A stretch of DNA of 64,000 nt from contig JBFWOS010000001.1 of NCBI GenBank assembly GCA_050250375.1, forward strand, positions 1,086,361 to 1,150,360, read 5' to 3'. The notes beneath the pieces were generated by a model, which saw only the letters and a list, made by a program, of their open reading frames with translations, was not told where the DNA came from and did not search any database. Positions 3,542-46,457 of the stretch are shown here, piece by piece; the stretch's first letter is position 1; each line of letters starts with the position of its first letter. The DNA is from Candidatus Omnitrophota bacterium. Its GTDB lineage: Bacteria; Omnitrophota; Gorgyraeia; Zapsychrales; Zapsychraceae. The position numbers were made by a program, and so were the translations under genes.

Positions 3542-3898
3542 TTATTGAGATATGGCGTTAGCGTGGAATTTATAAAGGCGGGCCATGCGTAAAAGTTCAA
3601 TTTTATGGAACTTCAATCCGATTTCCCAGAAATTTGCAGCGGTCTTCTTGATCCAGACGACTTCCCCCCGTAAATCCATCGGAGCCAAACCGTCCGGCAG
3701 ATCAATCTCTAAAGCGATCTTATCATTTAAAAAAAGGCGGTCTTTAGTTGTGAATTGCGCCCCGAAGGCAGACGCATTTCGCAGATAAACATTTTCTCCG
3801 AACGGTTCTCGTTCATCCTTGAATTTGGCGGGATAACGGGCTGAAAACCGCTCAAATAAACGCCGGTCATCTTTACGGATTTCTTCAAACATATCCAT
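3542..3898 (-). CDS. PilZ domain protein (c-di-GMP receptor)
   Basis: RxxxR motif (DDRRLFERF) plus N/DxSxxG motif (RNASAFGAQF). 118 aa single-domain PilZ. Confidence 0.6.
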   Translation of the reverse strand: MDMFEEIRKDDRRLFERFSARYPAKFKDEREPFGENVYLRNASAFGAQFTTKDRLFLNDKIALEIDLPDGLAPMDLRGEVVWIKKTAANFWEIGLKFHKIELLRMARLYKFHANAISQ

Positions 3899-5681: not shown

Positions 5682-7058
5682 CTATTCCTTAAAAAAACTT
5701 TGGGTGATCACGTCCGCTATGTTTCCTGCAATCAGTTTAATGCCGTCGGTTGATAAATGGCCGAAATCTCCGGCAAAATTGTCTACAAAATATTGTTCAT
5801 ACGGCTTCTGACTCAGGGCGTCTTTGAAAATCTTCTCATTGTCCACAAACACAACATTTCTATCCTTACCTAACATTTTAACCAACGGATCTAATTTTCG
5901 CATGGGGTATTGGACACTGACCAACTTGATCCCCCGGCTCAATACAATTTCCTTAATCTGCCTGTAATTATCAACCGTTAACGGAGATAAATATTGGGCA
6001 TCCAGATCAGCGGCTTTAATAAACTTCTCTTCAGCCTCCTTGACTTTCCCTTGAATCAAGTAATAACTCGCCCACATCTTGCTAAAAATATAACTGTCAG
6101 GAAATTTCTCATCAGCCTTTTGTAAGACCTGCTCAAGCTTATCATATTCTTTCTGTTTAAAATAAATCTGAGCCAGCTTTTCATATGCTTCGTCCGAGTC
6201 AGGAATGTTCTGTATCATGGCTAAAACCGTTTCTTCCGCCAAGGAATATTTCATCGCGTAAAAATACCGCATGCTTAACAGACTATACGCTTCTTCATTC
6301 TTTGGATCAAGCTCTATGGCTCTTTTTAAATAGCTGACAGCCAAATCCATTTCCGCATAATACGAATAAATCCCCCCAAGGTTGGAATAAATCGGTGAAT
6401 AATCCGGATCAATCTTCATTGCTTTCTTTAATACCAATTCGGCCTCGTCAAATTCCAATCTATCCATATAATCATAGACCTGTTCCATCAATTTTGTCAT
6501 ACGAGGATCCTCATGAGACAAAACGTAATCCTCTTCCTTTTCAGAATTCCTGGATTGAGCATGTAGGCGAATATGATTCAACAACCGATATACCTTCAAC
6601 CGTTTCACGGCCAAAATAAACCAATTATCTTTATCATTTCCAAGCACTTCTTCCGTAACGTCGTTTCTTCCGTCATTAATTCCAATCATGGTGATAACCA
6701 TGTCCGGGGCGTATTTGCTCAGATTCTCTTTTAAATTAGAAAGGATAATACCGCTGGTTACACCCAGAATACCTTCATTAATGACCCGGAATTTGATTCC
6801 TAAATTTTTTTGATTTAATATTTTTTCCAGCTGATAGGGATACGAATGTTCCAGGGTTCCAGAAAACGTTGTCGATTCGCCGATACATAATATCCGGTAA
6901 GCTCCGGTTTCTTTCAAAGCCTGATGATTTTTATAAGATTGATAATATTTAAATACAAAGCCAGACAGTCGCATTCCGGTTTCGACAAAAATAACGGTCA
7001 TAATGAATCCAACCGCGATTAGAATAATTTTCTGCTTACCCGTTGTCTTGTCTTTCAT
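5682..7058 (-). CDS. TM-anchored SGNH/GDSL hydrolase with inserted TPR-repeat domain (paralog 1 of 4)
   Basis: N-terminal TM helix. Block I is ILCIGESTTFSG (catalytic Ser), block III is MIGINDG. A ~200-aa TPR region follows (repeated AEEAY...LG...Y pattern). Block V is FAGDFGHLS (DxxH). Confidence 0.7.
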   Translation of the reverse strand: MKDKTTGKQKIILIAVGFIMTVIFVETGMRLSGFVFKYYQSYKNHQALKETGAYRILCIGESTTFSGTLEHSYPYQLEKILNQKNLGIKFRVINEGILGVTSGIILSNLKENLSKYAPDMVITMIGINDGRNDVTEEVLGNDKDNWFILAVKRLKVYRLLNHIRLHAQSRNSEKEEDYVLSHEDPRMTKLMEQVYDYMDRLEFDEAELVLKKAMKIDPDYSPIYSNLGGIYSYYAEMDLAVSYLKRAIELDPKNEEAYSLLSMRYFYAMKYSLAEETVLAMIQNIPDSDEAYEKLAQIYFKQKEYDKLEQVLQKADEKFPDSYIFSKMWASYYLIQGKVKEAEEKFIKAADLDAQYLSPLTVDNYRQIKEIVLSRGIKLVSVQYPMRKLDPLVKMLGKDRNVVFVDNEKIFKDALSQKPYEQYFVDNFAGDFGHLSTDGIKLIAGNIADVITQSFFKE

Positions 7059-7068
7059 GAACTTTCTG

Positions 7069-7770
7069 TCATTTCTTCCTGAAGATTAATTGAATAAAAT
7101 CAGCCATCGCTGTTCCCACCACTTTAATATTCGCCCCCGTTGGTACTCCTCCTTCACGGACAAAATGCTCAATCGGCACTTCTTTAATCCTGGCTTTTTT
7201 AACACGGGCATTAATAAACACATGTGTATAAAACGCTCCGGCGTGCGAGTCAATCCCTTCCGTTTCTAAGAACTGTTTATGGAACAATTTAAACCCGCAA
7301 TTGATATCTTTAGACTTAATCCCGAAGGCCGCTCCAACGCAAAAGGTATATAATTTCCCTAACATAATCCGGTGGACCGGATCGACCCGCTTTGAACGGT
7401 AACCGGCTATAATGTCATAGTCTCTGGTATAATTGAGCATCGGATCGATGGAGTTAATCTTAATCTGGCCGTCAGAATCCATAAGCAGAATCCATTCGTG
7501 CCTGGATCGCTCAATCCCCGAAATTAACGCCTTTCCATACCCTTTATTTACCGGAAGAGTGACCACCGTAACATGGTTATAAGATTTCCCCAAATCTTTT
7601 AAGATATCAGGTGAGCGGTCAGTACTGCCATCGTCTACCAGGATTATTTCATACCCGGTAATATTCTTGTGGGAATGAAGATGATTGTATACTTCTTCAA
7701 CGGTCTTTCGGATATTGGATTCTTCATTATAAACCGGAAGAATGACAGATAGGGTCACTTGATCGCTCAT
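7069..7770 (-). CDS. Glycosyltransferase family 2, polyprenol-phosphate sugar synthase-like (DPM1/ArnC-like)
   Basis: LSVILPVYNEESNI ... EIILVDDGSTDRS (DxD-type GT-A fold). 233 aa, soluble. 4-nt overlap with the downstream radical SAM gene. Confidence 0.75.
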   Translation of the reverse strand: MSDQVTLSVILPVYNEESNIRKTVEEVYNHLHSHKNITGYEIILVDDGSTDRSPDILKDLGKSYNHVTVVTLPVNKGYGKALISGIERSRHEWILLMDSDGQIKINSIDPMLNYTRDYDIIAGYRSKRVDPVHRIMLGKLYTFCVGAAFGIKSKDINCGFKLFHKQFLETEGIDSHAGAFYTHVFINARVKKARIKEVPIEHFVREGGVPTGANIKVVGTAMADFIQLIFRKK

Positions 7771-9065
7771 ATCAACGTAATTAGACGCCCGACAAATAAC
7801 TTGAAACTTCGTATGAGCGTGAGCATGTTTGAACTGAGCAAATAGGCAGGCCTCAGATAGTACTTTAAATAAGTTTTACGGATATGCCGGTCGATGTATT
7901 TGTTAAAATTGATGTCAGGCATATAAACATTGCTTTTAAGATAAGGGTATACTTTATGAAATGATACAAAATTTGTGTTTAGTTCCTTGGCGAATTGAAA
8001 GGTTTCATTCCGGTCACTGTCCGATTCTTCCTTCAATCCGAACATATAAAAAGCCAGGGTCTTGATACCGGCCTGTTTGCACATCCTGACCCCTTCTTTG
8101 ATCTTCTCCGGAGAAATATGTTTATTTGTCAGATCCAGGTATTTCTTTGTGCCGCTTTCAACGCCAACATGGATCAATTGACAGCCGGCCGCTTTCATCT
8201 TCTTTAATATTTCCGGATCTACCGAATCAGCCCGGGTCTGGCAGCACCATTTGAAATCGTACTTCTTTTCGATGAGAAAATCACACATCCTTGAAACCTG
8301 CGCCTTATAATGTAGAAATTCAAGATCCATAAAATAAGCTGTTTTGACCCCGTGCTCCTCAACAGCAACCTGAATCTCTTTACAAATCTGTTCGCTGGTT
8401 TTGACCCGCAGTTTCGGTTCGTACATGATCTTGTTGCAGAATTTGCAGCCAAAATTACAGCCGCGGCCCAATTCGAACAGGACAAAATCTTTTCCGAGGA
8501 TTTCATAAAAGTATTTCCTGATATCCAGCAGATGAAACGCCGGAACGGGCAGATCGGTCAACTCAAAATTTCCCCGGTCCGGATTAGATTTGAAATGACC
8601 GTTTTCCCGATAACTGATGCCGGTGATTTGGGAAAGTTCCTGATCCTGACAGATATCATCCACAATGTATTCAGGCCCCCCGCGGATCACGGCCATAGCC
8701 CCGGTATTTTCTAATACCGTCACAGGGTCAACCGTCCCATGATAACCCATGATATAAAAATTATCCGTGTGTTCTTTAATTACTTTTACCGTTTCATAAA
8801 AAGCCGTCATATTAATATTGGGACATTGCCAGCGGTCAAGCGATGAGGATGTAATAAATATTTTATCGTAACCCATTAAATGGGTTTTTAATTTATGAGG
8901 TTTGATTCGCAAAGCATGCGCGTCGAGGATGCGGACAAAATGCCCTCTTTGCTCCAGGATCGCGGCACAATTAGCCAGGCACAGAGGCGGCCAGATACGG
9001 TTATACGTATGCTCTCCCTTTCCATAAGGGTACGGCCAGTAAGGTTTAATCAATAATATTTTCAT
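7767..9065 (-). CDS. B12-binding domain radical SAM protein
   Basis: N-terminal cobalamin-binding-like domain, then FELGRGCNFGCKFCNK (CxxxCxxC). Confidence 0.8.
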   Translation of the reverse strand: MKILLIKPYWPYPYGKGEHTYNRIWPPLCLANCAAILEQRGHFVRILDAHALRIKPHKLKTHLMGYDKIFITSSSLDRWQCPNINMTAFYETVKVIKEHTDNFYIMGYHGTVDPVTVLENTGAMAVIRGGPEYIVDDICQDQELSQITGISYRENGHFKSNPDRGNFELTDLPVPAFHLLDIRKYFYEILGKDFVLFELGRGCNFGCKFCNKIMYEPKLRVKTSEQICKEIQVAVEEHGVKTAYFMDLEFLHYKAQVSRMCDFLIEKKYDFKWCCQTRADSVDPEILKKMKAAGCQLIHVGVESGTKKYLDLTNKHISPEKIKEGVRMCKQAGIKTLAFYMFGLKEESDSDRNETFQFAKELNTNFVSFHKVYPYLKSNVYMPDINFNKYIDRHIRKTYLKYYLRPAYLLSSNMLTLIRSFKLFVGRLITLI

Positions 9066-9068
9066 AGT

Positions 9069-10286
9069 CTAAAAAAACTGTATGATTTTTCTTAACGTTT
9101 CAATAAACAACCGAACTTCTTCTTCCGTATTATACGCATAGAGGGATACTCTCAAACTCGGTGTCAGCCGGTGTCTTTTATACCCCGCGTGACAGCAGTG
9201 CACGCCGCTGCGGGTCATGATGTTTTCCGTCTGGTCCAGAATAATGGACAATTCACCTGAATCCATTCCTTCAACATAAAAATTGATAATCCCGGACCGT
9301 AAATCAGGATCCTGCGGTCCGATTATCCGGACTTTTGGCCAGCTTTTAATCGTGTCGGTCATCAGCCGGTTGAGCATGGATACATGCGCTCTGATTTCTT
9401 TCAGGCCTGTCTTCGTCAAATATTCGATGGCCGCCGTAACGCCTGACGCCCCCGCGTAATTCTGCAGACCAGCTTCAAACCGGTCGGGGACTTTCGATAA
9501 AACAAAAGAATTGGCGCTAACATCATCAACGGTTTCTCCTCCGATATACAACGGCTCCAGATTATCCAGATGTTTCTTCTTAGCATAAAGACATCCCATT
9601 CCGCTGGGGCCAAGCATCTTATGAAACGAAAAAGCGAAAAAGTCAGCATCAAGTTTTTGTACATCAATTGAATGATGGGCGATACTCTGCGCGCCGTCAA
9701 CCAAAACCAATGCGCCGTGTTCATGGGACAACCGGATTATATCCTCAATCGGAAACGTGTACCCCGTAATATGGCTCGTGTGCACGATGCTGACCAATTT
9801 AGCCCCTTCTTTTAAAAGAGCAACAAACCTTTCTTGATCGAATTTCAAATCCTCGGTCAGGCCAAAAATTCTTAAAACGGTCTCTTTCTTTCTTCCAATC
9901 ATCTGCCAGGGTAAAAAATTCGAATTGTGTTCCAGGCTGCTTGTCAGAACCACTTCACCCTTCAAAAAATTTATGCCGTTCGCGACAAGATTAATGGATT
10001 CCGTCGCATTCTTGGTGAAAACGATTTCATCCGCGCTCTTGGCGTTAATAAATCTCTGAACAGACTTCTTGGCCTGTTCATAGGCGGACGTTGTTTTCAG
10101 TCCGAATTTATGAACCGACCGTTTATGACAGCTGGGATGAACCATATAATACTCGTTCATGGCCTCCACCACCTGTCTCGGTCGTAACGTCACACAGGCA
10201 TTATCAAAATAAACCGGCTTTTTCCCTTTACTCACGCTTTCTAACGAAGGGAAATCTTTTCTCAATTGATTGCAATCAAAACCCAT
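9069..10286 (-). CDS. Cysteine desulfurase (class V aminotransferase, SufS/CsdA-like)
   Basis: PLP lysine motif SFHKMLGPSGMG. Active-site Cys region RSGVHCCHAG. Overall SufS-like length of 405 aa. Confidence 0.8.
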   Translation of the reverse strand: MGFDCNQLRKDFPSLESVSKGKKPVYFDNACVTLRPRQVVEAMNEYYMVHPSCHKRSVHKFGLKTTSAYEQAKKSVQRFINAKSADEIVFTKNATESINLVANGINFLKGEVVLTSSLEHNSNFLPWQMIGRKKETVLRIFGLTEDLKFDQERFVALLKEGAKLVSIVHTSHITGYTFPIEDIIRLSHEHGALVLVDGAQSIAHHSIDVQKLDADFFAFSFHKMLGPSGMGCLYAKKKHLDNLEPLYIGGETVDDVSANSFVLSKVPDRFEAGLQNYAGASGVTAAIEYLTKTGLKEIRAHVSMLNRLMTDTIKSWPKVRIIGPQDPDLRSGIINFYVEGMDSGELSIILDQTENIMTRSGVHCCHAGYKRHRLTPSLRVSLYAYNTEEEVRLFIETLRKIIQFF

Positions 10287-10290
10287 GATC

Positions 10291-10656
10291 TTACTTAAAC
10301 CATAATATGACCGGAAAAATTACGCTAATCCAGATCATCAAAAATATTGTTAGATTGAAATTTCTGTATATCATCCCGGAGAATTTCGGAGAAACGGAAA
10401 AAAACCTCCCGGCGATCTTGCACCGGTATAAAGGAATAAACGGCTTCTTATGAATAAGGTTCAGATTCGCCCGGATAACGACCATAAGAAAATTTTTCGT
10501 CCGTCTGGCCGTTGGAACGACAAAACTGAATAAATAAAAAAAGGGCAGCACAACAGCCGACGCAACCAGCATCGGCACAGACAGTGTCAGCAAACCGAAC
10601 AAATTCGGCCCCTTATCTTCCATACTATAACCGCAACAACCTGTTTCACCAATCAT
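10291..10656 (-). CDS. Hypothetical small membrane protein (two predicted TM segments)
   Basis: ORF fills the gap between the cysteine desulfurase and the PP-loop gene. Hydrophobic stretches LFGLLTLSVPMLVASAVVLPFFYLF and LTIFLMIWISVIFPVILWF. No recognisable family. Confidence 0.3.
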   Translation of the reverse strand: MIGETGCCGYSMEDKGPNLFGLLTLSVPMLVASAVVLPFFYLFSFVVPTARRTKNFLMVVIRANLNLIHKKPFIPLYRCKIAGRFFSVSPKFSGMIYRNFNLTIFLMIWISVIFPVILWFK

Positions 10657-10660
10657 AAGA

Positions 10661-11515
10661 TTACCTTTCGATCAGTTTATACAATCTGCTTTCCGGGCCT
10701 TTTTCCACAAACTGATCCAGCTCCCGGGTAAAAGTCGCGATCTTGTCCTTATAAAAGACAAGAGTCGCTTGCTGATATTCATCATAAGTATGATCCGCCA
10801 GGTACAACCATTTTACAAAAATATTAAAAAGAATAAACTGAAAACAGCGCGGCTGCATTTTACGGTCCAACGCGGTGCCTTTGACATTTTCAGACGGCAT
10901 CAGACCGAGTTCATAAAGCTTCCGCCCGGTCGTTTGTGTCTGCGTCGCTGTATTACAAGAAGTCTTGTTGTCCTGCGTAAAAAATCGCTCCAATCTGAGA
11001 CGGTCAGTAAATTCCAGATCCTGCGGGCCATCATATTTAAAGACCGGATTGGTGTAAGTAATCCCAAAACGGGCGTACATGTCCCCGTATTCATTAATGA
11101 TTGTAGCCATCTGGTCGGGAAAAAGGTGCATCCCCTGATTCGCGCCGTCACAGACATTGGGTATTTGGTTCTCGAGGCAAAAGATCGCGGTACGCACATG
11201 CATGGCCAGCTTGCATAATCCGCAAATAGTCAGCAGAAAAAAGCCATGTTTTTTAATATTGCTCAAATATCGTTCGTAAAACACATACCGTGTCAGTTTC
11301 TCTACCTTGATGATATGAAACTCAAATTTATTCTGACCGTATTTATCCTGCAGTTTTTTGACATTAATCATCGGATTGGTGACCGAAGAAAACGCAAACC
11401 GGTCGTAGGTGATCAAATGGATCTTGTCGTATTTTTCGGCCATTAACGCGGCCGTTAATGTCGAATCTGTCCCTCCGGAAAATAATGTCGCTGTTTCATT
11501 TCGTCTCATAAACAA
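10661..11515 (-). CDS. PP-loop ATP pyrophosphatase superfamily protein with CxxC...C cluster (TtcA/TtuA-like thiolation or LarE/QueC-like)
   Basis: N-terminal SGGTDST (SGGxDS PP-loop) within the first 20 aa. CGLC at ~100 and an isolated Cys at ~123. 284 aa. Confidence 0.65.
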   Translation of the reverse strand: MFMRRNETATLFSGGTDSTLTAALMAEKYDKIHLITYDRFAFSSVTNPMINVKKLQDKYGQNKFEFHIIKVEKLTRYVFYERYLSNIKKHGFFLLTICGLCKLAMHVRTAIFCLENQIPNVCDGANQGMHLFPDQMATIINEYGDMYARFGITYTNPVFKYDGPQDLEFTDRLRLERFFTQDNKTSCNTATQTQTTGRKLYELGLMPSENVKGTALDRKMQPRCFQFILFNIFVKWLYLADHTYDEYQQATLVFYKDKIATFTRELDQFVEKGPESRLYKLIER

Positions 11516-11696
11516 CCTGCTCCTGTTTTGCTTTCTCCAGCTCTTTCAGAATGAACTTCAAAATAACGATATACGAAAGGTAAATGAACTGGGTGATCCA
11601 CCCCAGAATTTCAATGTAGACACACCTCATCTTCCAGGGCATGATCAGTCCAAAACCGCATAAGAGTATCGCCAAAATTTTCCTGATCGTCTTCAT
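11496..11696 (-). CDS. Hypothetical small membrane protein
   Basis: 66-aa ORF with one long hydrophobic stretch, wedged between the PP-loop gene and a radical SAM gene. Overlaps the PP-loop start by 20 nt. Confidence 0.3.
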   Translation of the reverse strand: MKTIRKILAILLCGFGLIMPWKMRCVYIEILGWITQFIYLSYIVILKFILKELEKAKQEQVVYETK

Positions 11697-11701
11697 TTAT
11701 T

Positions 11702-13195
11702 TTATCCGCTGGCGGCCATAAAAGATTCTTTCTCCTGTTTACCCGTCTGTCCCTCCGTTACAGACTGCAGGATATACGCTTGTATGATCAATCCCAAAGC
11801 GTTCATTAAATTTTGGGCGTATTTCCACTTATCCGGATACTTTCTAAATCCCCGCCTGATACGGCTCCATTTGAAATAAAAACGCCGCTGTGCCTTTAAA
11901 ATCATCCGGTTTAAATCCTCAGGCGACACTTCCGCTTGTGAACGTTTAACCGAATAATAAGCGATATCTTTAATCTGTTCAAAGATTTTCCGGTTGTCGG
12001 CCGATTCCTTAAAACCGGATTCGTAAATTTTATTAACGTCGTCATAATCAGTCGCTTTAAAAAACGAAGCCACATCTAATTCAGAGTTGACGGCAAAATC
12101 GATGGTCCGGTTAATCTCTTCTTCCGATTCGGATAAATGCCCAAGCATAAAATACCCGCCGGTAATGATCCCTCTCTCTGAAGTCTTGGCAATCATCTCG
12201 TTCACCTGTTGGATATTCAGGTTCTTTCTAAAGGCCTTCTGCAATCGGGAAGATGCGGACTCGATCCCGTAAACTAATTTATAGGTTCCAGCCTGTTTCA
12301 ATAAATCCAGCAGTTCTTCCGTCATAATATCTGCCCTGACGCCATGAGGAAAGGCAAGACTGATGTTTAATCCGGCCTCAATGATCAACCGGCTGATCTT
12401 TTTAGCCCGTTCATTGTCATAGTTAAAAACGGCATCATAAATATGAAATTCTTTCGCCTCGAATCGGGTATGGAGATATTTTATTTCTTCGACCACATGT
12501 TCAGGGGAGCGGGCGAGAAATTTCTTTCCATAAGTTTCACGGCAAAACGTGCACTTAAAAGGACACCCCCGGGATGTAAGGATAGGAATATAAAAATCTT
12601 CCTTAAGCGCGCCGTTCCAATTGGAATACCGGGCATACTCTTTCACGTCGATTAGATCCCAGGCGAACGGGATTATATTGAACGCATCCAAATTTTCCGG
12701 ATATTCACGCGGGGATGTAGTCACAGTCCGATCGTCGTTCTTGTAGACCAATCCCGAAATATTTTGAAAGCCTCCCTTTTGGTTTCCCAAAACACCGATT
12801 AATTCTCCCACGGTCAGTTCAGGCTCCCCAACTACCACAAAATCAATATGCCGATCCTCACAAAGATATTGACTGGAAAATGTGGCCAACTGTCCAAACA
12901 CAACAACTTTAACCCAGGCCTTCCAACTCTTGGATAAAGCCGCCAGCCGATGGACCAGACCAGCCTCCCACGACAACGCGTAAAACACGACCACATCCGG
13001 ATCAAAATTCTCTATTTCCTTCCTGACATCATTCTCGGCCATATCGCCTATGCCGGTGTCCGTCACCTTGAACTCATACTTGTCCGGGAATCTTTCCTGG
13101 ATATGAGAAACGACATACAGAATCTCCAGAGGAGGGATCGGACCGCCCGTACCGACCGTAATATGCGTTCTAATTAAATGGATCTTCTTAATCAA
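11702..13195 (-). CDS. B12-binding domain radical SAM protein
   Basis: LTSRGCPFKCTFCRETYG motif. N-terminal Rossmann-like B12-binding region. Confidence 0.8.
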   Translation of the reverse strand: MIKKIHLIRTHITVGTGGPIPPLEILYVVSHIQERFPDKYEFKVTDTGIGDMAENDVRKEIENFDPDVVVFYALSWEAGLVHRLAALSKSWKAWVKVVVFGQLATFSSQYLCEDRHIDFVVVGEPELTVGELIGVLGNQKGGFQNISGLVYKNDDRTVTTSPREYPENLDAFNIIPFAWDLIDVKEYARYSNWNGALKEDFYIPILTSRGCPFKCTFCRETYGKKFLARSPEHVVEEIKYLHTRFEAKEFHIYDAVFNYDNERAKKISRLIIEAGLNISLAFPHGVRADIMTEELLDLLKQAGTYKLVYGIESASSRLQKAFRKNLNIQQVNEMIAKTSERGIITGGYFMLGHLSESEEEINRTIDFAVNSELDVASFFKATDYDDVNKIYESGFKESADNRKIFEQIKDIAYYSVKRSQAEVSPEDLNRMILKAQRRFYFKWSRIRRGFRKYPDKWKYAQNLMNALGLIIQAYILQSVTEGQTGKQEKESFMAASG

Positions 13196-13207
13196 CAGCT
13201 TGTCCTT

Positions 13208-14671
13208 TCACATCTGAAAAACATTTTCTTTTTTCAATACAGCATAAATAGTCTCGGACATAATCTTATGCCCTTCATTCGTGCAGTGGTCGTCATCGAA
13301 AAAATATTTGCTCTTTGGTTCCAGCCCTTTAAAAGCCGCCTGGTGATCAATCACCGGCAGATGATACTCATCGGCAATCTTCCGGAGAACCTTATTGGCC
13401 ATCATATAGTCTGTCGGGTATAACTGGACAAACAACCGGATATTTTTTTTCTGACATGTCACCGCAACGCTCTTTAAATCATCATAAATCCATTGTTCAA
13501 TTCCAGAGTCCCATTTTTGTTTGTCTTTATAAATATTCAGGTTATTTGTAAAATTTTTACTCAGGGACAGTAACGGATTTTCCTCCTTCATAGTCATCAA
13601 TTTCTGATAGATATCTCGAGAGTCGTAATAACTTTGCAATTCATATAACTTATTCAACTCTGAAAAAAAATAGTCGGCATCAGGATCAACCGCAATCGCC
13701 CGAAGATAATGATCAATCGCCTTGTTATAGTGCAATTTTTTCTTGTGCCAATTCGCCAACTCAAAATTATAATAGGCCAGACCATCATACACCTGTTCCG
13801 ACTGTTGATTCATTTGATACGTTTTTTGTAACAAATCCTCAGCTTTATCAATATTATCCGTCTTATAATAAAAATGAACCAGAGCCAACGCCCCTTCAAT
13901 CGGACTGACCTGTTTGTTTTTCAAAGTTTCCTCTAATAACTCAATTCCCTTTTGCGATTCTCCTGTGTTAAACAAATGCCAGGCTTGTTCAAGATAATTA
14001 TATTCTTGAGGGGTCTTGATCCCTTCCCAATGCTCAAGATGCCCCATGTAATTATCATGCCTGGTAAAAATACTCCGCGTTGGTTTGAGATTCCTGAGCA
14101 TTAATTTCTTTTTCTGAAATTCTATGCCGTCACTTTGATCAACAGCCCAACTGATCCTGATAAACCGGGCCATTTTGACAACACGCAGTTCAAAAAACCA
14201 ATTCTTTAAGGATGACCATTTACTTTTTTTTGCGTATGCCTCATACGCCCAAGGATTAAAACGATTGGTAGCCCCCGCCAGAAGTAAGACGACTTTAGGA
14301 TGATATTTCGAAATCATGGCCGGAATCCGCTGAACCAGTTCATGAGTGTTCAGTTCGCAAATGCCCTGATTGTGTATCTTTACATGGTTGATCTGATTTC
14401 GTTGAAACAATTCTCTTAAATGCGAGGTATAGGTTTCGTGGGCTTCAACCATTCCTCCATGCGTGAATGAATCCCCAACGGCGATAATATCGGTAACATG
14501 CCCCACGCTCTCCGCGGCTGACTCCGTTTCATCCGTACGGTATTCTTCATCGTATTCATAATAGATTTTACCCACCACCCGAAGTCCAACTTCAAGGATA
14601 GTAAGGAAAAAAATAAAGCTGAACACACTCAATAGGATTTTTACGAATAATGGCGTTTTAATTTTCGACAT
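13208..14671 (-). CDS. TM-anchored SGNH/GDSL hydrolase with inserted TPR domain (paralog 2)
   Basis: N-terminal TM. IIAVGDSFTHGG (GDS block I), LLAGATNRF (block III), TPR-like middle region, DDDHCTNEGH (DxxH block V). Confidence 0.65.
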   Translation of the reverse strand: MSKIKTPLFVKILLSVFSFIFFLTILEVGLRVVGKIYYEYDEEYRTDETESAAESVGHVTDIIAVGDSFTHGGMVEAHETYTSHLRELFQRNQINHVKIHNQGICELNTHELVQRIPAMISKYHPKVVLLLAGATNRFNPWAYEAYAKKSKWSSLKNWFFELRVVKMARFIRISWAVDQSDGIEFQKKKLMLRNLKPTRSIFTRHDNYMGHLEHWEGIKTPQEYNYLEQAWHLFNTGESQKGIELLEETLKNKQVSPIEGALALVHFYYKTDNIDKAEDLLQKTYQMNQQSEQVYDGLAYYNFELANWHKKKLHYNKAIDHYLRAIAVDPDADYFFSELNKLYELQSYYDSRDIYQKLMTMKEENPLLSLSKNFTNNLNIYKDKQKWDSGIEQWIYDDLKSVAVTCQKKNIRLFVQLYPTDYMMANKVLRKIADEYHLPVIDHQAAFKGLEPKSKYFFDDDHCTNEGHKIMSETIYAVLKKENVFQM

Positions 14672-14695
14672 AAAAGCCTTTCCTTAGATTTTATT

Positions 14696-14908
14696 TTAAA
14701 ACAAGGCGTAAATGGCCGGTAAAATAGACGAATTCCCAGCCAAATTTACAAAAATACTCAAAAAGGCCAATACAAACAACAAAGGCAAAAGCCACCATTT
14801 TTTATGTTCCTTGATCATTAAAAAAAGCTCAATCAATAAATCTTTGTTTGAACTGATTTTTGATTTTTTTCGTTTTGGTTTTAGGTCGTTTTTCTTTTCT
14901 TCGTTCAT
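14696..14908 (-). CDS. DUF5989-like small membrane protein
   Basis: 70 aa. ...KEHKKWWLLPLLFVLAFLSIFVNLAGNSSILPAIYALF resembles the small KKxWLxP...APFIYTLF family often found next to polysaccharide-modifying genes. Family assignment is from memory. Confidence 0.4.
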   Translation of the reverse strand: MNEEKKNDLKPKRKKSKISSNKDLLIELFLMIKEHKKWWLLPLLFVLAFLSIFVNLAGNSSILPAIYALF

Positions 14909-14936: not shown

Positions 14937-16220
14937 TCAACTTATTTTATTGAAGAATTTATTTTCAATCAAAACCTTATATATTGATTGGCTGATAATG
15001 GCATGCCCCAATTTATTCGGATGGATGGTGTCATGCTCAGGATCAAGAAACAAGTACTCATTACTTTTTTGAAAATAAGCGGAAAACTCATCAACAATAT
15101 CCACCAAAACTAACTGTTCTTCTCCGGCAATTTCCTGCATTATAATATTGTATTGTTTAGCCAGGGCTTTGCATTCATAAAGCTCCATGAGAACCGTCTT
15201 TTTAAAATAATTTTCGGCATCCGTTTTTTTGTTTAATTTCAAACTCAACTGTCCCAGATAATAATAAGCCCGGGCAGAATTCGGGTTTAATTCCAAAGCC
15301 GTTTTAAGACCCGCCAAAGCCCCCTCATAATCCTGTAGATTCGTTCTGCGGACAACTTGGTTGATTTTTTCATCAGCTTGCTTTTGGATTTCAGGCGAAA
15401 CATCTTCCGCTGACGGTAAATTCACCGGCATTTTTAACAGGACAACAGTGATGCCATTTTCTTTGGCCGTCTTGATTAAAGACTTCAGATTGTTCCGGTA
15501 ATCCAGGGCCGAAACTCTGCGTTGATTAACATATTCCCCGCTTCCGCGCTGACCAAAATACTGCAGTGACAATGCTTGCGATTGAAGGATAAATTTCTTA
15601 TAAGCAGTAAAAAATTTACTTCGATCTAAAAAATTTTCAATCGCGACCAATACGTCATTTTTAAGGCCTAACTCTTTATCACTCTTCCCATGGTTACGGT
15701 AAAAGCGGTATTTATCGACATCATTAATCACATATGCCACCGTAATTATATCCGGCGCAAGCGGCAGGATTTTTTCTTTAAAAAACCGTAGCCCCTGAAA
15801 TGAGCTGTAACCAATCTGTCCGGCATTAATGACCTCAATATTTGTACGGGTAAAAGTCTTACGCAGTGATTCTTCAAGCTGTTTGGCATAAACTTCATTT
15901 TGATCTACGCCCCAGCCGAACGTCGGTGATGCCCCCAGACAAACAATACGCACCTGTCCGTTCTTTTTTCCGAACGGACGATCACGCAGACCGAGTGCAT
16001 TTGTTCTTACCCGGGCTCCTTCAAAGACTATGTCCAGATGCGGTTTTTGTATCCAGAATAATCCGGTATCCTGCTGCAAAACGCTCCGGATCCTATCAAG
16101 ACGAGTTGGAGTCCCGGCCAGCCAATAGCCCGCCCCTTCGCCTAAGCATAAAAGGACCAGGAAAAAAATCAGCCCAATGAATGGGCCTCGACATTTATAC
16201 CATATTGAATTGTGTGTCAT
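14937..16220 (-). CDS. TM-anchored SGNH/GDSL hydrolase with inserted TPR domain (paralog 3)
   Basis: RIVCLGASPTFGWG (block I, Ser present), VAYVINDV (block III), TPR-like region (ARAYYYLGQLSLKLNK...), DPEHDTIHPNKLGH (block V). Confidence 0.6.
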   Translation of the reverse strand: MTHNSIWYKCRGPFIGLIFFLVLLCLGEGAGYWLAGTPTRLDRIRSVLQQDTGLFWIQKPHLDIVFEGARVRTNALGLRDRPFGKKNGQVRIVCLGASPTFGWGVDQNEVYAKQLEESLRKTFTRTNIEVINAGQIGYSSFQGLRFFKEKILPLAPDIITVAYVINDVDKYRFYRNHGKSDKELGLKNDVLVAIENFLDRSKFFTAYKKFILQSQALSLQYFGQRGSGEYVNQRRVSALDYRNNLKSLIKTAKENGITVVLLKMPVNLPSAEDVSPEIQKQADEKINQVVRRTNLQDYEGALAGLKTALELNPNSARAYYYLGQLSLKLNKKTDAENYFKKTVLMELYECKALAKQYNIIMQEIAGEEQLVLVDIVDEFSAYFQKSNEYLFLDPEHDTIHPNKLGHAIISQSIYKVLIENKFFNKIS

Positions 16221-21485: not shown

Positions 21486-22886
21486 TTAGAGTTTATTTAA
21501 GATCGTTTCTGCGATATTACGGGCTAATATTCCGTTTCCTTTTGGGGTGCAATGCCCGAAATCCCCGGCAAAATTATCAATAAAGATAGCATCATAACCC
21601 TCTTTTTGGACAGCGGCATTAAACACCATTTCATTATCGACAAAAATTATGTTGTTGTCGTGACCAACCAGAGTCTTTAATACGGCGACCTCCCGCCTAG
21701 GATACTGAACCAGAACTAATTTAAGATGGTTTTTGAAGACTTTTTCTTTAAGGATTTTATAATTATGTTTTGTAACAGGATTAAAGGAGCCCGCTTTCGC
21801 CTGCTTAGATTTTATCAAATACTCATTGGCCAACCGTAGATTATCTTGTGTCTCATAAAAGAGTTTCAAGGCTTTGTAAGAATCATGGGTTTCTTGCCTT
21901 TTGGCGCTGTTGGTAAATAACATTTCCGCTTTCTGGGTATCCCCGTCTTTTAAATAGCTCCACCCCAAAGACATGTCAATGTCATTATTGTCGTTGTCTA
22001 ATGATTTAGCCTGAACCAGTACATTAATCGCATCTTTCCACTGTTGATGAATGATATATATCTGGCCTAAGGTAATATACAAGTTCGAATTATTCGGATC
22101 CTTGCTTATCCCTTCTTTCATGACGATTTCAGATTCATTCAGTTTTCCGGCTAAGGCTAAGCATAGACCTAAATTAACATACGTATCTGCATCCCCCGGA
22201 AAATCTTTGAGAGTCTGCCGAAACAATTTCTCCGCATCATTAAATTTTCCTTCAGCAATCATCCCCCAGCCTGTTTCGAAATGAGGGCCATAACCTTCGG
22301 ATACATCCTCAATAATTCTCCGGTAAATAAATTCCAGTTCCTTGGATAAATTCCGGCCGCGGTTCTTGTTTATTTTATTTTGAACGGACAAATACAATAA
22401 ATGGAATAATTTATAAACCCTTAAATCTTTCGCCGCACCTTTGAAATACACTCCGATGTCATTCTTAAATTCAACGCGATCATCGGCAAAATCATTTATC
22501 CCCATCATAACGATAACCATGTCCGGTTTATAACTATTAAGGTACTCGTCCAATTTTGTCAGGATATAAGATGTTGTAATTCCCGGAATACCTTTGTTAA
22601 TCGTTCGGAATTGGATATCCGGTCTTTTCTCATTCAGAATTTTTTCGAGCTGTTTCGGATAGGAAAATTCTCCCCCCAAAGCTGTTGACGATTCCCCCAA
22701 ACATAAAATTTTATATGTACCCCCCTCACTCAGATTTTTCTTATTCTGAAGATCCTGGGAAAAAATGTATACAACTCCTCCCAAACGTAAACCGACCTCA
22801 AGCAGCACGAATAAAAATATCAGACTGCCGACAATCAACAGAAATTTTTGTCTCATGTCTTTACTCCCGTCCCCCGCGGATGACAA
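21486..22886 (-). CDS. TM-anchored SGNH/GDSL hydrolase with inserted TPR domain (paralog 4)
   Basis: YKILCLGESSTALGG, MMGINDF, TPR-like region, FAGDFGHCT (DxxH). Closest paralog of 5682-7058. Confidence 0.7.
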   Translation of the reverse strand: MSSAGDGSKDMRQKFLLIVGSLIFLFVLLEVGLRLGGVVYIFSQDLQNKKNLSEGGTYKILCLGESSTALGGEFSYPKQLEKILNEKRPDIQFRTINKGIPGITTSYILTKLDEYLNSYKPDMVIVMMGINDFADDRVEFKNDIGVYFKGAAKDLRVYKLFHLLYLSVQNKINKNRGRNLSKELEFIYRRIIEDVSEGYGPHFETGWGMIAEGKFNDAEKLFRQTLKDFPGDADTYVNLGLCLALAGKLNESEIVMKEGISKDPNNSNLYITLGQIYIIHQQWKDAINVLVQAKSLDNDNNDIDMSLGWSYLKDGDTQKAEMLFTNSAKRQETHDSYKALKLFYETQDNLRLANEYLIKSKQAKAGSFNPVTKHNYKILKEKVFKNHLKLVLVQYPRREVAVLKTLVGHDNNIIFVDNEMVFNAAVQKEGYDAIFIDNFAGDFGHCTPKGNGILARNIAETILNKL

Positions 22887-25965: not shown

Positions 25966-26742
25966 TTAATAAATTTTCCTGATAATAAGGTTAGTCAAGC
26001 CGGGTGACAACCGGTTTAACAAATATAGCGGTATACACTTTTTTCCGATGACGACCATTTTTTTGTTCTTTTCAATGGCCGTCAGAATGGCCTGTGCAAC
26101 GGTGTCGGCACTGATCCCTGTTCTTTTATGTTGATACGGTTCATCACGGTACAAAACGTTTGGTTCGAATTCCGTTTCAACTTTCCCAGGACAGACCAAA
26201 ATAACCCGGATATTATCTTTCCTTGCATCTTCAGCCAGCGATTCGGTCAATCCGTTGACAGCAAACTTGGAAGACGAATACAATCCGCAATCATAAAATC
26301 CTTTGATTCCCGCCACCGAAGAAACATTCAGGATAACTCCTCCTCTCCGTTTCTTCATATATGGATAAACGGCACGGGTACAATACAATACTCCGTACAA
26401 ATTCGTAGCCAGCATGTCCCGATACAAATCCATCGGGCCCGTGATGATCGACCCCTTAAATCCCACACCGGCATTATTAATCAAGACATCCACTTGTCCG
26501 TATTTCCGGATCACTTGTTCCACCAAGTGCTGAACCTGATCTTCCTTCCCGACATCAGCCGGGATGACCATCGTATCACCACCGGTTAATTTACCTGCGA
26601 CAGCGTCAAGTTTATCTTTTCGGCGGGAAACAAGTACAACCCTGGCGCCTTTCTGGGATAACAACCCTGCACAGCTTTGTCCGATCCCCGAGGATGCACC
26701 TGTCACAATGACCACCTTGTTAGTAAAATCATATTTTTTCAT
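25966..26742 (-). CDS. Short-chain dehydrogenase/reductase (SDR) family oxidoreductase
   Basis: VVIVTGASSGIGQS (TGxxxGxG NAD(P)-binding motif). 258 aa. 4-nt overlap with the upstream DegT gene. Confidence 0.85.
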   Translation of the reverse strand: MKKYDFTNKVVIVTGASSGIGQSCAGLLSQKGARVVLVSRRKDKLDAVAGKLTGGDTMVIPADVGKEDQVQHLVEQVIRKYGQVDVLINNAGVGFKGSIITGPMDLYRDMLATNLYGVLYCTRAVYPYMKKRRGGVILNVSSVAGIKGFYDCGLYSSSKFAVNGLTESLAEDARKDNIRVILVCPGKVETEFEPNVLYRDEPYQHKRTGISADTVAQAILTAIEKNKKMVVIGKKCIPLYLLNRLSPGLTNLIIRKIY

Positions 26743-28055
26743 GAAAACTCCATCGGCTTGTTCATCGCCGGATAACCAAAATATTCTCTTATCACATTTG
26801 CCTGATAATAAATATCTTCATCCGATAAAAACTGTGAACACGGCAGCTCAATGATCTTTTCATCAACCAACTTCATTTGCGGATAACTTTCCTCATCATT
26901 TAAGAGCTCCGCGCAGTTACGCATGGACGATTCTTTCGAATCAATTCCTCTTAACAACAAATGCGTTCGGATCGCTTTTTTAAGAGGAGTAATTATATTA
27001 AACGACAACGCGATATGCTCCCTGTTTTCAACAATCGGTATCAGACCAATCTCTTTAACATCTTTCAGAAGATTTTCTAAAAGTTTTGCTTTAACGACGC
27101 GCCGGTCATTTGTTTCATCCAGCCTGGCCAGTTGGGAAAGCCCAAGTTGGGCTTGAAAGACTGTATACGGACTGATTTTGCTTTTGGAACGCGCATCCGC
27201 CGGGGTATATTTATCGCCTGTCAAGCGTTCAATCGGATCAAACTGAAACAAGTTAGAAAGAACGAGCCAGGGGTAGACAAAGAGCGAAAATAACAGCCGG
27301 TTCGTCAATGTTATCTGAAGTAATGATTTTAGATAATACCGGTAGCTTTTCAGCCGTTTATAGTCTCCGTGTACTCCATCCAGAATCTCTTTAAACTTAA
27401 AGAATCGCTTATTGTCTTTGCAGACGATCATTCCCCCGCCGAGTGTAACCAGACATTTTCCCGTTCCAAAACTGAACATTCCGAAATCCCCGAAACTTCC
27501 AATTTTCCGCCCCCTTTTTTCAGCCCCGCAGGCATGAGCTGCATCTTCAATAAGGATCAAATCATGCTTCATACAAATCGTTTGGATTTCCTGGATTTCA
27601 GCCGCACGGCCGAATAAATGGGTAACAACAATACCCCGGGTTTTAGGAGTGATTTTTTTCTCGATCATTCTGGAATCTATATTCAGAGTCTCCGAGTCGA
27701 TGTCTACAAATACCGGCTTCAACCCCTTACTCTTAAGCATGATCGGCATCACATGATAATTATAGGCCGCGAGAATGATCTCATCTCCCTGACACAGTCC
27801 GAGAGAATCGAGTAAACACGAAAAACCCTCCCGGACAGACGAAACGGCAGATGCATGCGGTACGCCGATATACTCTGCAAACCTTGTCTCGAATTCCAGA
27901 ATCTTGTCCGTTTTGTTCCTTGCTAAAAAAGATCCGCCCACGGATTTCAGATCTGCTTTGGAATAGGACACCAACCGTCTTGGAATGATTTTCAATTTTA
28001 CCCTTGTGTTTGTTTGATTAAATAATTTTTGATTCGATTTGGAAAACTCATTCAA
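26739..28055 (-). CDS. DegT/DnrJ/EryC1/StrS family PLP-dependent sugar aminotransferase (or dehydratase) with C-terminal extension
   Basis: LIEDAAHACGAEKRGRKIGSFGDFGMFSFGTGKCLVTLGGGMIV matches the family signature (EDAAqA.GA...G..G...FSF...K....GEGG) with the PLP lysine. Confidence 0.75.
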   Translation of the reverse strand: MNEFSKSNQKLFNQTNTRVKLKIIPRRLVSYSKADLKSVGGSFLARNKTDKILEFETRFAEYIGVPHASAVSSVREGFSCLLDSLGLCQGDEIILAAYNYHVMPIMLKSKGLKPVFVDIDSETLNIDSRMIEKKITPKTRGIVVTHLFGRAAEIQEIQTICMKHDLILIEDAAHACGAEKRGRKIGSFGDFGMFSFGTGKCLVTLGGGMIVCKDNKRFFKFKEILDGVHGDYKRLKSYRYYLKSLLQITLTNRLLFSLFVYPWLVLSNLFQFDPIERLTGDKYTPADARSKSKISPYTVFQAQLGLSQLARLDETNDRRVVKAKLLENLLKDVKEIGLIPIVENREHIALSFNIITPLKKAIRTHLLLRGIDSKESSMRNCAELLNDEESYPQMKLVDEKIIELPCSQFLSDEDIYYQANVIREYFGYPAMNKPMEFS

Positions 28056-46170: not shown

Positions 46171-46457
46171 AAAAAAACCTATCCTTCATCCAAGAAGAAT
46201 AGGCTTATCATTGACTATGATGCTGGCAACTGGCTATCCTAAAAAAACTAGGACCCTTTAGCTTTGTGCCCCACCTTCTCAGATGGTTTACCTTTTGCAT
46301 GTATTTTCTGTTCTCTAGTATATAAAGCATAACATACGCTCTTTTCATTTGCCAGATTACTTTAACATGGGTAATATTAGGATTGAACAAAAATGTCATA
46401 AATGTTATACTCGGTAAATCTTCGAAAAGTTCATAACTATAATCCTTTCAATAAAAA
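46171..46457. promoter_or_regulatory. Divergent intergenic region (likely promoters for the fibre gene and the cvpA-like gene)
   Basis: 287-nt AT-rich spacer between divergently oriented genes. No specific boxes verified. Confidence 0.3.

Follow-up and report, generated by a model that had tools for sequence, protein, structure and literature searches.

A probable sulfur-insertion cassette with two membrane microproteins in a glycan-type locus of an Omnitrophota bacterium

Why would a cysteine desulfurase and a PP-loop ATPase lie side by side within a glycan-type gene cluster? The question is raised by a stretch of 64,000 nucleotides from Candidatus Omnitrophota bacterium (GenBank assembly GCA_050250375.1, contig JBFWOS010000001.1, positions 1,086,361–1,150,360; the whole stretch is hereafter the window). 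It encodes a SufS-like cysteine desulfurase, a 284-residue SGGxDS PP-loop protein with a CGLC...C cysteine arrangement, and two tiny membrane open reading frames (ORFs), here called orf66 and orf121. All of these elements were listed in an initial annotation of the window and are present, in the ORFs and their translations, where it placed them; that annotation proposed ATP-dependent insertion of sulfur into a sugar, a nucleotide sugar, or a cofactor. PP-loop enzymes are known to replace oxygen by sulfur at the expense of ATP in tRNA, in a few cofactors, and in two natural products, but to our knowledge no such exchange is known for cell-envelope polymers.

We find that the four genes are real and not chance ORFs, because the PP-loop protein has 316 database homologs, and both tiny ORFs are syntenic across phyla and annotated in the source metagenome-assembled genome (MAG). 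On balance, we favor the view that they encode a dedicated, membrane-tethered, ATP-dependent oxygen-to-sulfur exchange for the tailoring of a surface polymer, a reading drawn from invariant residues, motif geometry, homology to the enzyme YcfA, and synteny.

The PP-loop protein and its cysteine triad

The PP-loop protein matches no TilS, TtcA, ThiI, LarE, MnmA, DndC, or SspD model of Pfam, NCBIfam, or PADLOC, and no WbuX-type model at E <= 0.01. Its scores for DUF7411 (Pfam; 21.8 bits against a gathering score of 28.7, profile positions 3–62 of 194), QueC PF06508 (19 bits against 22, residues 10–38 only), and QueC TIGR00364 (20.5 bits against 150) all fall below threshold, and PADLOC returns only weak QueC and QatC matches. 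The similarity to QueC, QatC, and DUF7411 is limited to ~30–60 N-terminal residues around the PP-loop. Many of the homologs are flagged as DUF7411 (PF24167), which places the family at the edge of that group. With profile matches that are either sub-threshold or absent, housekeeping QueC, TilS, TtcA, and ThiI are ruled out; the protein is thus neither QueC nor TilS nor another housekeeping enzyme, the identities that the initial annotation had set against its own proposal.

The best solved relative is YcfA, the PP-loop enzyme of 6-thioguanine biosynthesis in Erwinia amylovora (PDB 9KQ6/9KQ7; PMC12494993). It is found with E 1e-7 from the single sequence and E 1.3e-18 from a profile of 28 homologs, over an alignment that spans residues 6–164, while QueC reaches only 5e-4 in the same profile search. 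The matched entries (9KQ6/7/9/D) are titled "asparagine synthetase domain-containing protein." A Foldseek search with the AlphaFold2 model (predicted local distance difference test score of 84) gives the same picture, i.e. the top 20 matches are all YcfA chains (E ~2e-9, TM 0.6/0.77), followed by carbapenam synthetase, NcsA, TtuA, ThiI, and QueC at 1e-5 to 1e-4; NcsA and TtuA match at ~1e-4 with a TM of ~0.37. YcfA activates the O6 carbonyl of GTP by adenylation and attaches free L-cysteine to it, and the pyridoxal phosphate (PLP) enzyme YcfC, which lacks the desulfurase catalytic cysteine, then cleaves the adduct to yield a thioamide; Arg18, Tyr128, and Gln129 of YcfA bind/activate the L-cysteine (PMC12494993). 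A thioamide was among the products first suggested for this locus, and that idea gains weight now that the closest characterized relative turns out to form one.

Catalytic signatures are kept throughout the family. In the SGGTDS motif, S13, G14, G15, D17, and S18 are invariant, and among 120 homologs C98 and C101 are 100% and C224 is 99% conserved. The same residues persist in a branch at ~30% identity, where the PP-loop motif, C98, and C101 are each found in 28/28 members and C224 in 27/28, within a TQxTCxFG motif. Members of this branch (loci L050–L075, e.g. L051 at 8810–14857) read CLGCR...TQxTCxFG, have no orf66, orf121, SufS, or DUF5989 neighbors, and are located between a DegT aminotransferase gene and genes for a carbamoyltransferase and a family 2 glycosyltransferase (GT2).

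We propose that C98, C101, and C224 are three ligands of a [4Fe-4S] cluster. CGLC sits at the N-terminus of a helix (residues 97–116) and is followed by the invariant K102 and H106, and C224 belongs to an invariant Q-P-R-C-F-Q motif at the start of helix 225–238. None of the three positions holds a cysteine in YcfA. A fourth conserved cysteine, C113, is also found in YcfA; it lies 12 residues from C101 along the same helix, so that it probably does not bind the same cluster.

The spacing of the triad is close to that of known Fe-S sulfur insertases. The second cysteine stands 23 residues before the glycine of strand beta-4 both here (C101 to G124 of DGAN) and in Escherichia coli TtcA (C122-x-x-C125 to the glycine of LGHH), and the distance from CxxC to the third cysteine is 123 residues, compared with 127 in CtaC (C157 to C284). 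CtaC, from the closthioamide pathway, is a PP-loop Fe-S enzyme that thioamidates peptide backbones, and its C154, C157, and C284 are required for this Fe-S-dependent reaction (PMC6772006). In Thermotoga maritima LarE, the [4Fe-4S] cluster is bound by a CXXC-C motif and obtains its sulfur from the cysteine desulfurase IscS (PMC9283937). In CtaC and this LarE alike, the triad binds [4Fe-4S] and sulfur transfer depends on it. LarE turns an adenylated carboxylate into a thioester or thiocarboxylate (PMC9283937).

Conservation of the cassette and its partner proteins

A pattern scan of 185,579 species genomes yields 76 loci, and in 46 of these the PP-loop protein is 36–78% identical to the one in the window (the related loci). 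Neighbors were clustered for these 46 and the window, 47 loci in all, using every ORF within 8 kb of the PP-loop gene. The hosts of the 46 loci are Omnitrophota, Elusimicrobiota, and Bacteriovoracaceae/Halobacteriovoraceae (Bdellovibrionota), together with one Gottesmanbacteria bin and bins labeled Planctomycetia or Rickettsiales. Bacteriovorax stolpii and Halobacteriovorax marinus both carry the cassette and are cultivable, which makes the predictions directly testable; in B. stolpii (CP030035), it lies near 191.8–194.4 kb (L077, 9867–12429).

In 41 of the 44 loci with enough flank, the gene immediately preceding the PP-loop gene is an orf66 homolog. Orf121, in turn, tracks the desulfurase: among 41 loci with enough downstream flank, both genes are present in 19 and both are absent from 20, and each is found without the other in one locus. 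Wherever the desulfurase is present, the gene order is PP-loop, orf121, desulfurase. The two tiny ORFs, which had been treated as incidental, are hence conserved parts of the cassette. Judging from gene order, orf66 and the PP-loop protein are its universal core, and orf121 and the SufS-like protein form an accessory, putatively sulfur-supplying sub-module. This accessory pair occurs in nearly all Bdellovibrionota loci and is absent from many loci of Omnitrophota and Elusimicrobiota. In one Omnitrophota MAG (L007, 10753–11028), an orf121 homolog has an in-frame stop and there is no desulfurase; the accessory sub-module may be decaying there, in line with a joint loss of both genes.

By its sequence, the desulfurase is a dedicated SufS/CsdA-type (type II) paralog of the class-V PLP enzymes. 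It scores 375 bits for Aminotran_5 and 417.4 bits for the SufS subfamily model TIGR01979 (cut-off 475.1), and its best solved relative is Synechocystis SufS (1t3i, E 1.7e-88), with SufS of Bacillus subtilis at 2e-85. The HK and HC motifs of SufS align with K223 (SFHKM) and C364 (GVHCC), and these residues are found in 23/23 and 22/22 of the cassette-linked orthologs, respectively. The persulfide cysteine is thus kept, unlike in YcfC, which argues for a persulfide route over a cysteine-adduct/lyase route. The defense systems Qat, Dnd, and Ssp were rejected as candidates, as their PADLOC matches are weak or generic and partner genes are missing.

Orf66 has, by hydropathy, a basic N-terminus, one clear transmembrane helix, and an amphipathic aromatic segment, and its conserved motif reads LPW(R/K)xR...E.LGW..Q...Y...LKFI..EL. 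We propose that it is a membrane anchor or a subunit of the PP-loop enzyme. No Pfam family matches orf66 or orf121, and database searches with the two return close relatives only and no fusions. In five distant homologs of the PP-loop protein (L057, L058, L064, L070, and L075), the N-terminus is extended by a hydrophobic stretch that contains an LPxRL-like motif and may replace orf66; because a hidden Markov model of orf66 scores these extensions weakly (best E 0.008 in a search of 28 sequences), an orf66/PP-loop fusion is not used as evidence here.

An exhaustive profile search for orf121 among 1.84e9 representative proteins gives only 78 clusters, in which no fusion to a further domain occurs. 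Full-length proteins have ~116–136 residues, besides a few fragments and one member of 167. In 76 aligned members, C7 and C8 are present in 76/76, followed by a nearly invariant G9; C79 is found in 68/76, always after Arg or Lys, and P28, F100, and N101 are nearly invariant. The AlphaFold2 model consists of a disordered tail (1–18), a straight first transmembrane helix (19–44), two amphipathic helices, and a second transmembrane helix (90–120). The central loop is strongly basic (on average 9.2 Lys/Arg vs 1.4 Asp/Glu) and so, by the positive-inside rule, is predicted to be cytoplasmic; the Cys-Cys tail would then be extracytoplasmic. The strict linkage between the genes for orf121 and the desulfurase makes it very likely that the two proteins are partners. 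By analogy with SufE, SufU, and CsdE, which serve type II desulfurases, orf121 could act as a tether, an activator, or a sulfur acceptor, and C79 in the modeled loop is a topologically easier candidate for accepting sulfur than the Cys-Cys tail. A comparison of orf121 with SxtJ found no relationship.

Several other families recur around the PP-loop gene. The most frequent is SGNH/GDSL, with two membrane-anchored families found in 33/47 loci combined, followed by B12 radical S-adenosylmethionine (SAM) enzymes (24/47), the desulfurase and orf121 (20/47 each), a NodU/CmcH-type carbamoyltransferase (15/47), and another radical SAM family (11/47). Orthologs of the B12 radical SAM enzyme (46–66% identity) lie directly upstream of orf66 in L001–L005, L007, L014, L020, L031, L040, and L044, as is recurrent in loci arranged in the Omnitrophota manner. 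The gene tables of B. stolpii and H. marinus add DegT, FdtA, GT1/GT2, SPASM radical SAM, PqqD (its gene in the B. stolpii locus), SxtJ, and DUF5989. The window lacks a carbamoyltransferase gene, and it also lacks the Bdellovibrionota-type radical SAM gene.

DUF5989 is present in 30 of the 46 related loci, directly upstream of orf66 in 11 (L008, L012, L015, L033–L038, L042, and L043) and separated from it by one B12 radical SAM gene in 7. Of the 28 loci checked, 26 have an SGNH or carbamoyltransferase gene no more than ~170 bp from DUF5989. Each of the 29 copies has one transmembrane helix after a basic N-terminus and ends in ...LPAIY(A/V/S)(L/I/V)F, with AIYALF in 24/29. In the microprotein DltX and in PatA (FIYANF), the Tyr of a C-terminal FXYXXF motif carries an acyl group to an extracytoplasmic SGNH transferase (PMC12148441). 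By this likeness, DUF5989 (SxtK-like) is possibly an acyl-shuttle microprotein; our literature searches found no paper on it.

Within the window, a Pfam scan of 57 ORFs (nearly all those of >=110 residues outside larger genes) finds no Suf scaffold, SufE/SufU, SufBCD, Isc, or tRNA-thiolation genes. There are no tRNA genes in the 64 kb, and the only tRNA-modification gene, MnmE, is 36 kb from the cassette. Neighbors include B12 and SPASM radical SAM, SGNH-TPR, and GT-C/PMT_2 genes, as well as GT2, GT9, DegT, and SDR genes. The initial annotation had described just such a context, with radical SAM, glycosyltransferase, and sugar-modifying genes but neither Suf nor tRNA modification, and had seen in it a dedicated sulfur module, not a housekeeping one; this agrees with a triad that is invariant even at ~30% identity and with the catalytic Cys and Lys retained by the cassette desulfurases.

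Proposed chemistry and rival explanations

In the mechanism that we favor, the SufS-like enzyme, with PLP on K223, would take sulfur from L-cysteine as a persulfide on C364, as its invariant catalytic residues suggest. The sulfur would then pass to the PP-loop enzyme, a partnership suggested by synteny, possibly through an orf121 cysteine in what is a speculative relay. Held at the membrane with orf66, the PP-loop enzyme would carry its [4Fe-4S] cluster on C98/C101/C224, the free iron binding the sulfide, as indicated by motif, spacing, and invariance. ATP bound at SGGTDS would adenylate a carbonyl or carboxyl oxygen of the substrate, and the cluster-bound sulfide would displace AMP to give C=S (i.e. 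a thioamide or thiocarbonyl) or a thiocarboxylate; both steps are modeled on the chemistry of YcfA, TtcA/TtuA, CtaC, and LarE. Loci without a desulfurase, among them many of Omnitrophota and Elusimicrobiota, would use free sulfide or a housekeeping desulfurase, sources that are open to other Fe-S PP-loop enzymes as well. Membrane tethering, together with amino-sugar, glycosyltransferase, SGNH, carbamoyltransferase, and DUF5989 neighbors, suggests that the substrate is an intermediate of surface-polymer tailoring, either lipid-linked or close to the membrane. The likeliest target group is an N-acyl or carbamoyl carbonyl, or a carboxylate.

Several observations weigh against this reading. The three cluster ligands are proposed from motifs, and an hhalign comparison of the family profile with E. 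coli TtcA aligns only 21 columns of the PP-loop (probability 15%), so the equivalence of the triads rests on spacing read from the sequences. The likeness to TtcA, TtuA, and LarE drawn earlier hence stands for motif pattern and spacing and falls for family membership. Desulfurase and orf121 are missing from 20–21 of the 41 loci, which means that the PP-loop enzyme does not strictly need them. In addition, the predicted topology of orf121 places its Cys-Cys tail on the other side of the membrane from the desulfurase, and our literature searches found no natural thio-acyl sugar. Finally, the linkage to a DltX-like microprotein and SGNH enzymes could mean that a group is activated for transfer and that sulfur is not left in the product. 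Overall, what survives of the first interpretation is a dedicated sulfur module in a recurrent glycan-type context, as the cassette recurs with radical SAM and SGNH genes in other phyla, the check that the initial annotation had proposed; membership in the TtcA/TtuA/LarE families and incidental tiny ORFs do not. Searches of the literature on DUF7411, DUF5989, and thioamide together with AANH and polysaccharide found no paper describing the cassette.

The last of these objections can be extended to a Dlt-like export pathway, in which a small carboxylic or carbamic acid is adenylated by the PP-loop enzyme and made into a thioacid or thioester with sulfur from the cluster sulfide or a microprotein cysteine. 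The group would next cross the membrane to the C-terminal Tyr of DUF5989, from which periplasmic SGNH-TPR enzymes would load it onto the polymer; sulfur would be transient, replacing coenzyme A (CoA), a carrier protein, and a membrane-bound O-acyltransferase (MBOAT). We regard this as unlikely, although much in the locus is in keeping with it, i.e. the position of DUF5989 next to orf66 and next to SGNH or carbamoyltransferase genes, its AIYALF-type hexapeptide resembling FXYXXF (PMC12148441), the absence of MBOAT and AT3 domains from the window scans, the thioester or thiocarboxylate made by LarE (PMC9283937), and the predicted exposure of the orf121 tail. The scheme is inferential throughout, however, and DUF5989 also occurs with carbamoyltransferase and SxtJ where the PP-loop gene is not needed. 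Its motif begins with Ala and not Phe, thioacid-driven acyl shuttling has no known precedent, and the catalytic need for a full cysteine desulfurase is left unexplained. Chemistry that involves no sulfur appears distinctly unlikely. Here, the PP-loop enzyme would form an amide or amidine on an N-acetyl sugar (as WbuX/PseA-type amidotransferases) or a nitrile in the manner of QueC, and the SufS-like enzyme would merely feed Fe-S assembly of radical SAM enzymes. With at least 7 cluster-requiring radical SAM genes in the locus, half of the related loci devoid of an adjacent desulfurase, and a weak QueC-type similarity at the N-terminus, this has some appeal. What speaks against it is the invariant CxxC...C triad, a hallmark of sulfur-inserting PP-loop enzymes that is absent from YcfA, along with the sub-threshold scores for QueC, QatC, and DUF7411 in the PP-loop region only, the lack of a WbuX-type match, the fixed place of the desulfurase behind orf121, and the absence of a Suf/Isc scaffold nearby.

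The kinship with YcfA raises the further possibility that free L-cysteine is added to the adenylated substrate and that the PLP enzyme is a C-S lyase, with no persulfide involved; YcfA is after all the closest characterized relative, and the cassette partner belongs, as YcfC does, to the class-V PLP enzymes (PMC12494993). This is improbable, because the L-cysteine site R18/Y128/Q129 of YcfA is replaced by T16/G128/M129 (M129 being invariant), the cassette partner keeps the persulfide cysteine that YcfC lacks, the Cys triad would have no role, and many loci are without any PLP enzyme. Nor is a protein or peptide target easily accommodated. Orf121 has an invariant Cys-Cys(-Gly) in a tail modeled as disordered, SPASM radical SAM genes in the window and PqqD in B. 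stolpii would fit a pathway for ribosomally synthesized and post-translationally modified peptides (thioamidation, or Cys-derived modification with SPASM and B12 radical SAM enzymes), the window encodes two very Cys-rich secreted proteins, and CtaC offers a precedent for peptide-backbone thioamidation (PMC6772006). But orf121 tracks the desulfurase and not the PP-loop gene, it is a conserved two-helix membrane protein with a conserved cytoplasmic loop, unlike a precursor peptide, and the Cys-rich proteins are not conserved near the cassette elsewhere, which leaves this quite improbable. A housekeeping or defense role, i.e. tRNA thiolation, general Fe-S biogenesis, or Dnd/Ssp-type DNA phosphorothioation, has hardly any probability in our view. 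Systems for tRNA thiolation and Dnd/Ssp also combine a desulfurase and a PP-loop ATPase, and the desulfurase does match SspA (165 bits) and DndA (161 bits); these scores are generic beside 417 bits for SufS, no DndC, SspD, TtcA, MnmA, ThiI, or TilS model matches the PP-loop protein, dndB-E, sspB-D, suf, and isc partner genes are missing, and obligatory membrane microproteins recur with a glycan-type context in several phyla.

A broader conjecture, which we hold only tentatively and think fairly unlikely, would make the cassette the cytoplasmic, ATP- and sulfur-dependent activation stage of a hitherto unrecognized surface-polymer modification that needs neither CoA nor MBOAT. The orf66-tethered PP-loop enzyme would make a thioacid, thioester, or thiocarbonyl, orf66, orf121, and DUF5989 would handle the group across the membrane, and periplasmic SGNH-TPR enzymes, or in other lineages carbamoyltransferase/SxtJ, would install it on a glycan or glycoprotein. 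If true, the surface might end up bearing thio-acyl or thiocarbamoyl groups.

Under the favored reading of oxygen-to-sulfur exchange, the cassette defines an uncharacterized cross-phylum clade that would combine the YcfA fold with an Fe-S Cys triad and a true desulfurase. As such, it would be a natural test case for the divergence of two thioamidation strategies, that of YcfA without a persulfide and the classical one. It also adds two microprotein families that have no Pfam family or informative annotation, and makes orf121 a candidate for a new type of membrane-bound protein that accepts sulfur from type II desulfurases. The linkage to DltX-like DUF5989/SxtK and to SGNH enzymes further suggests a function for those widespread unknowns.

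Locus layout and relation to known systems

On the minus strand, the order of transcription is B12 radical SAM, orf66, PP-loop, orf121, SufS-like, and B12 radical SAM, with gaps of 3–5 bp, and orf66 overlaps the start of the PP-loop gene by 14–20 nt (Table 1). The ATG of the PP-loop gene is a likelier start than the TTG, since it is preceded by an AGGAG box and aligns with the conserved first Met of the homologs.

Table 1. Cassette features and adjoining genes, in coordinates of the window
Feature	Position	Strand	Basis or remark
orf66, 66-residue membrane microprotein	11496–11696	−	ORF list; source-MAG annotation AB7S78_08685, hypothetical protein
PP-loop ORF	10661–11515	−	284 residues from TTG; probable ATG start at 11509 gives 282 residues
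PP-loop motif SGGTDS (residues 13–18), ATP alpha/beta-phosphate binding site	11462–11479	−	Translation
C98-G-L-C101 (CGLC, residues 98–101) of the PP-loop protein	11213–11224	−	Translation
C224 of the PP-loop protein	10844–10846	−	Translation
orf121, 121-residue microprotein with two transmembrane helices	10291–10656	−	ORF list; source-MAG annotation AB7S78_08695, hypothetical protein
Cys-Cys pair of orf121 (residues 7–8)	10633–10638	−	Translation; invariant in homologs
SufS-like cysteine desulfurase, 405 residues	9069–10286	−	ORF list; Aminotran_5
PLP lysine K223 of the SufS-like desulfurase	9618–9620	−	Translation
Active-site persulfide cysteine C364 of the SufS-like desulfurase, motif RSGVHCCHA	9195–9197	−	Translation
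B12-binding radical SAM enzyme, directly upstream of orf66 (5-bp gap)	11702–13195	−	Profile scans
Second B12 radical SAM gene, directly downstream of the SufS-like gene	7767–9065	−	Profile scans
SGNH/GDSL-TPR protein, membrane-anchored, one of four paralogs in the window	13208–14671	−	Pfam
DUF5989 microprotein, 70 residues, between two SGNH-TPR genes	14696–14908	−	PF19451 at 54 bits

The cassette lies inside a co-directional array of ~42 kb that includes DegT, SDR, GT2 (polyprenyl-phosphate-sugar-synthase-like), GT9, and PilZ genes, a Peptidase_S74 fiber-like protein, the two Cys-rich secreted proteins, three PMT_2-type GT-C glycosyltransferases, and a YfhO-like membrane protein. No riboswitch or tRNA is found in the cassette region, and scans for promoters and terminators are uninformative, with counts near the shuffled expectation. 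Elsewhere in the window, a c-di-GMP-I riboswitch (GGC variant; 46221–46301, minus strand; 59.5 bits against a gathering score of 59) sits directly upstream of the Peptidase_S74 gene (44989–46170) that heads the long minus-strand array, and PilZ-domain genes are found at 3542–3898 and 62358–62828; the whole surface locus may be under c-di-GMP control. Peptidase_S74 (endosialidase chaperone) recurs near the cassette only in Bacteriovorax, where in two other loci its gene adjoins the cassette upstream (L077, 9336–9779, B. stolpii CP030035; L026). The window copy is 33 kb upstream of the cassette, and its similarity to the Bacteriovorax copies is weak (35% over 72 residues).

The larger Cys-rich protein (1420 residues; 40694–44956, minus strand) contains 11% Cys and is built of ~70-residue repeats (CTG..P.NxT.C.GD...CT.GTKCEY.C) with an N-x-T/S sequon in each; it is followed by the smaller one (447 residues; 39220–40563, minus strand). 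Their genes precede the GT-C genes, and both proteins may be targets of glycosylation. The three PMT_2-type GT-C genes and the YfhO-like gene span 29744–38284 (minus strand), and DegT, SDR, and a small GT2 are at 26739–28055, 25966–26742, and 7069–7770; the small GT2 resembles polyprenyl-phosphate sugar synthases (ArnC/PpgS-like matches). This layout recalls the Arn pathway, in that an amino sugar would be built, loaded on polyprenyl phosphate, and moved outside the cytoplasm. The four SGNH-TPR paralogs (5682–7058, 13208–14671, 14937–16220, and 21486–22886, minus strand) have an N-terminal anchor and TPR repeats in or after the hydrolase domain, and represent two families that recur in 28/47 and 25/47 loci. 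At 52947–55165 (minus strand), a lysine-2,3-aminomutase-like radical SAM gene precedes a D-Ala-D-Ala-ligase-type ATP-grasp gene; the two may be a beta-lysine ligation pair and appear unrelated to the cassette.

Compared with known systems, DUF5989 resembles DltX in its single transmembrane helix, a basic cytoplasmic N-terminus, and a short C-terminal tail; its x-I-Y-x-x-F ending recalls the hexapeptide of DltX and PatA, and its gene lies beside those of SGNH enzymes. It differs in the first motif residue, no MBOAT, AT3, DltA, or DltC gene is present at the DUF5989 locus, and DUF5989 also pairs with carbamoyltransferase and SxtJ. SufS/CsdA systems rely on SufE, SufU, or CsdE as acceptors, whereas the cassette desulfurase is coupled to orf121 with its invariant Cys-Cys.

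The PP-loop protein has the PP-loop Asp, K102, H106, C113, D123-G124, F132, P133, and Q135 in common with YcfA, all of which except C113 and F132 belong to the ATP-binding and adenylating apparatus, and the YcfA–YcfC logic of an adenylating PP-loop enzyme next to a class-V PLP enzyme also applies to the cassette. Among the GTP-contact positions of YcfA, Q135 is invariant in the family, F132 is kept in ~60–70%, and E134, the general base of YcfA, is not conserved. YcfA is a soluble tetradecamer (two-layer heptamers) that acts on GTP, whereas the family described here has a C-terminal extension of ~60 residues, the Cys triad, two membrane microproteins, a desulfurase that keeps its persulfide cysteine, and glycan-type loci. 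TtcA, TtuA/NcsA, CtaC, and T. maritima LarE share SGGxDS and CxxC...C with the PP-loop protein, but show no profile-level homology to it beyond the PP-loop. LarE with IscS also provides a case in which a cysteine desulfurase is the sulfur source, as proposed for the cassette. These Fe-S insertases are soluble enzymes that lack membrane microproteins of their own; their substrates are tRNA, peptides on a carrier, or a nicotinic acid cofactor. The system would therefore work like the Fe-S PP-loop thiolases while standing structurally next to YcfA, and it is a member of neither group, since some of the tests that define membership in each give a negative result.

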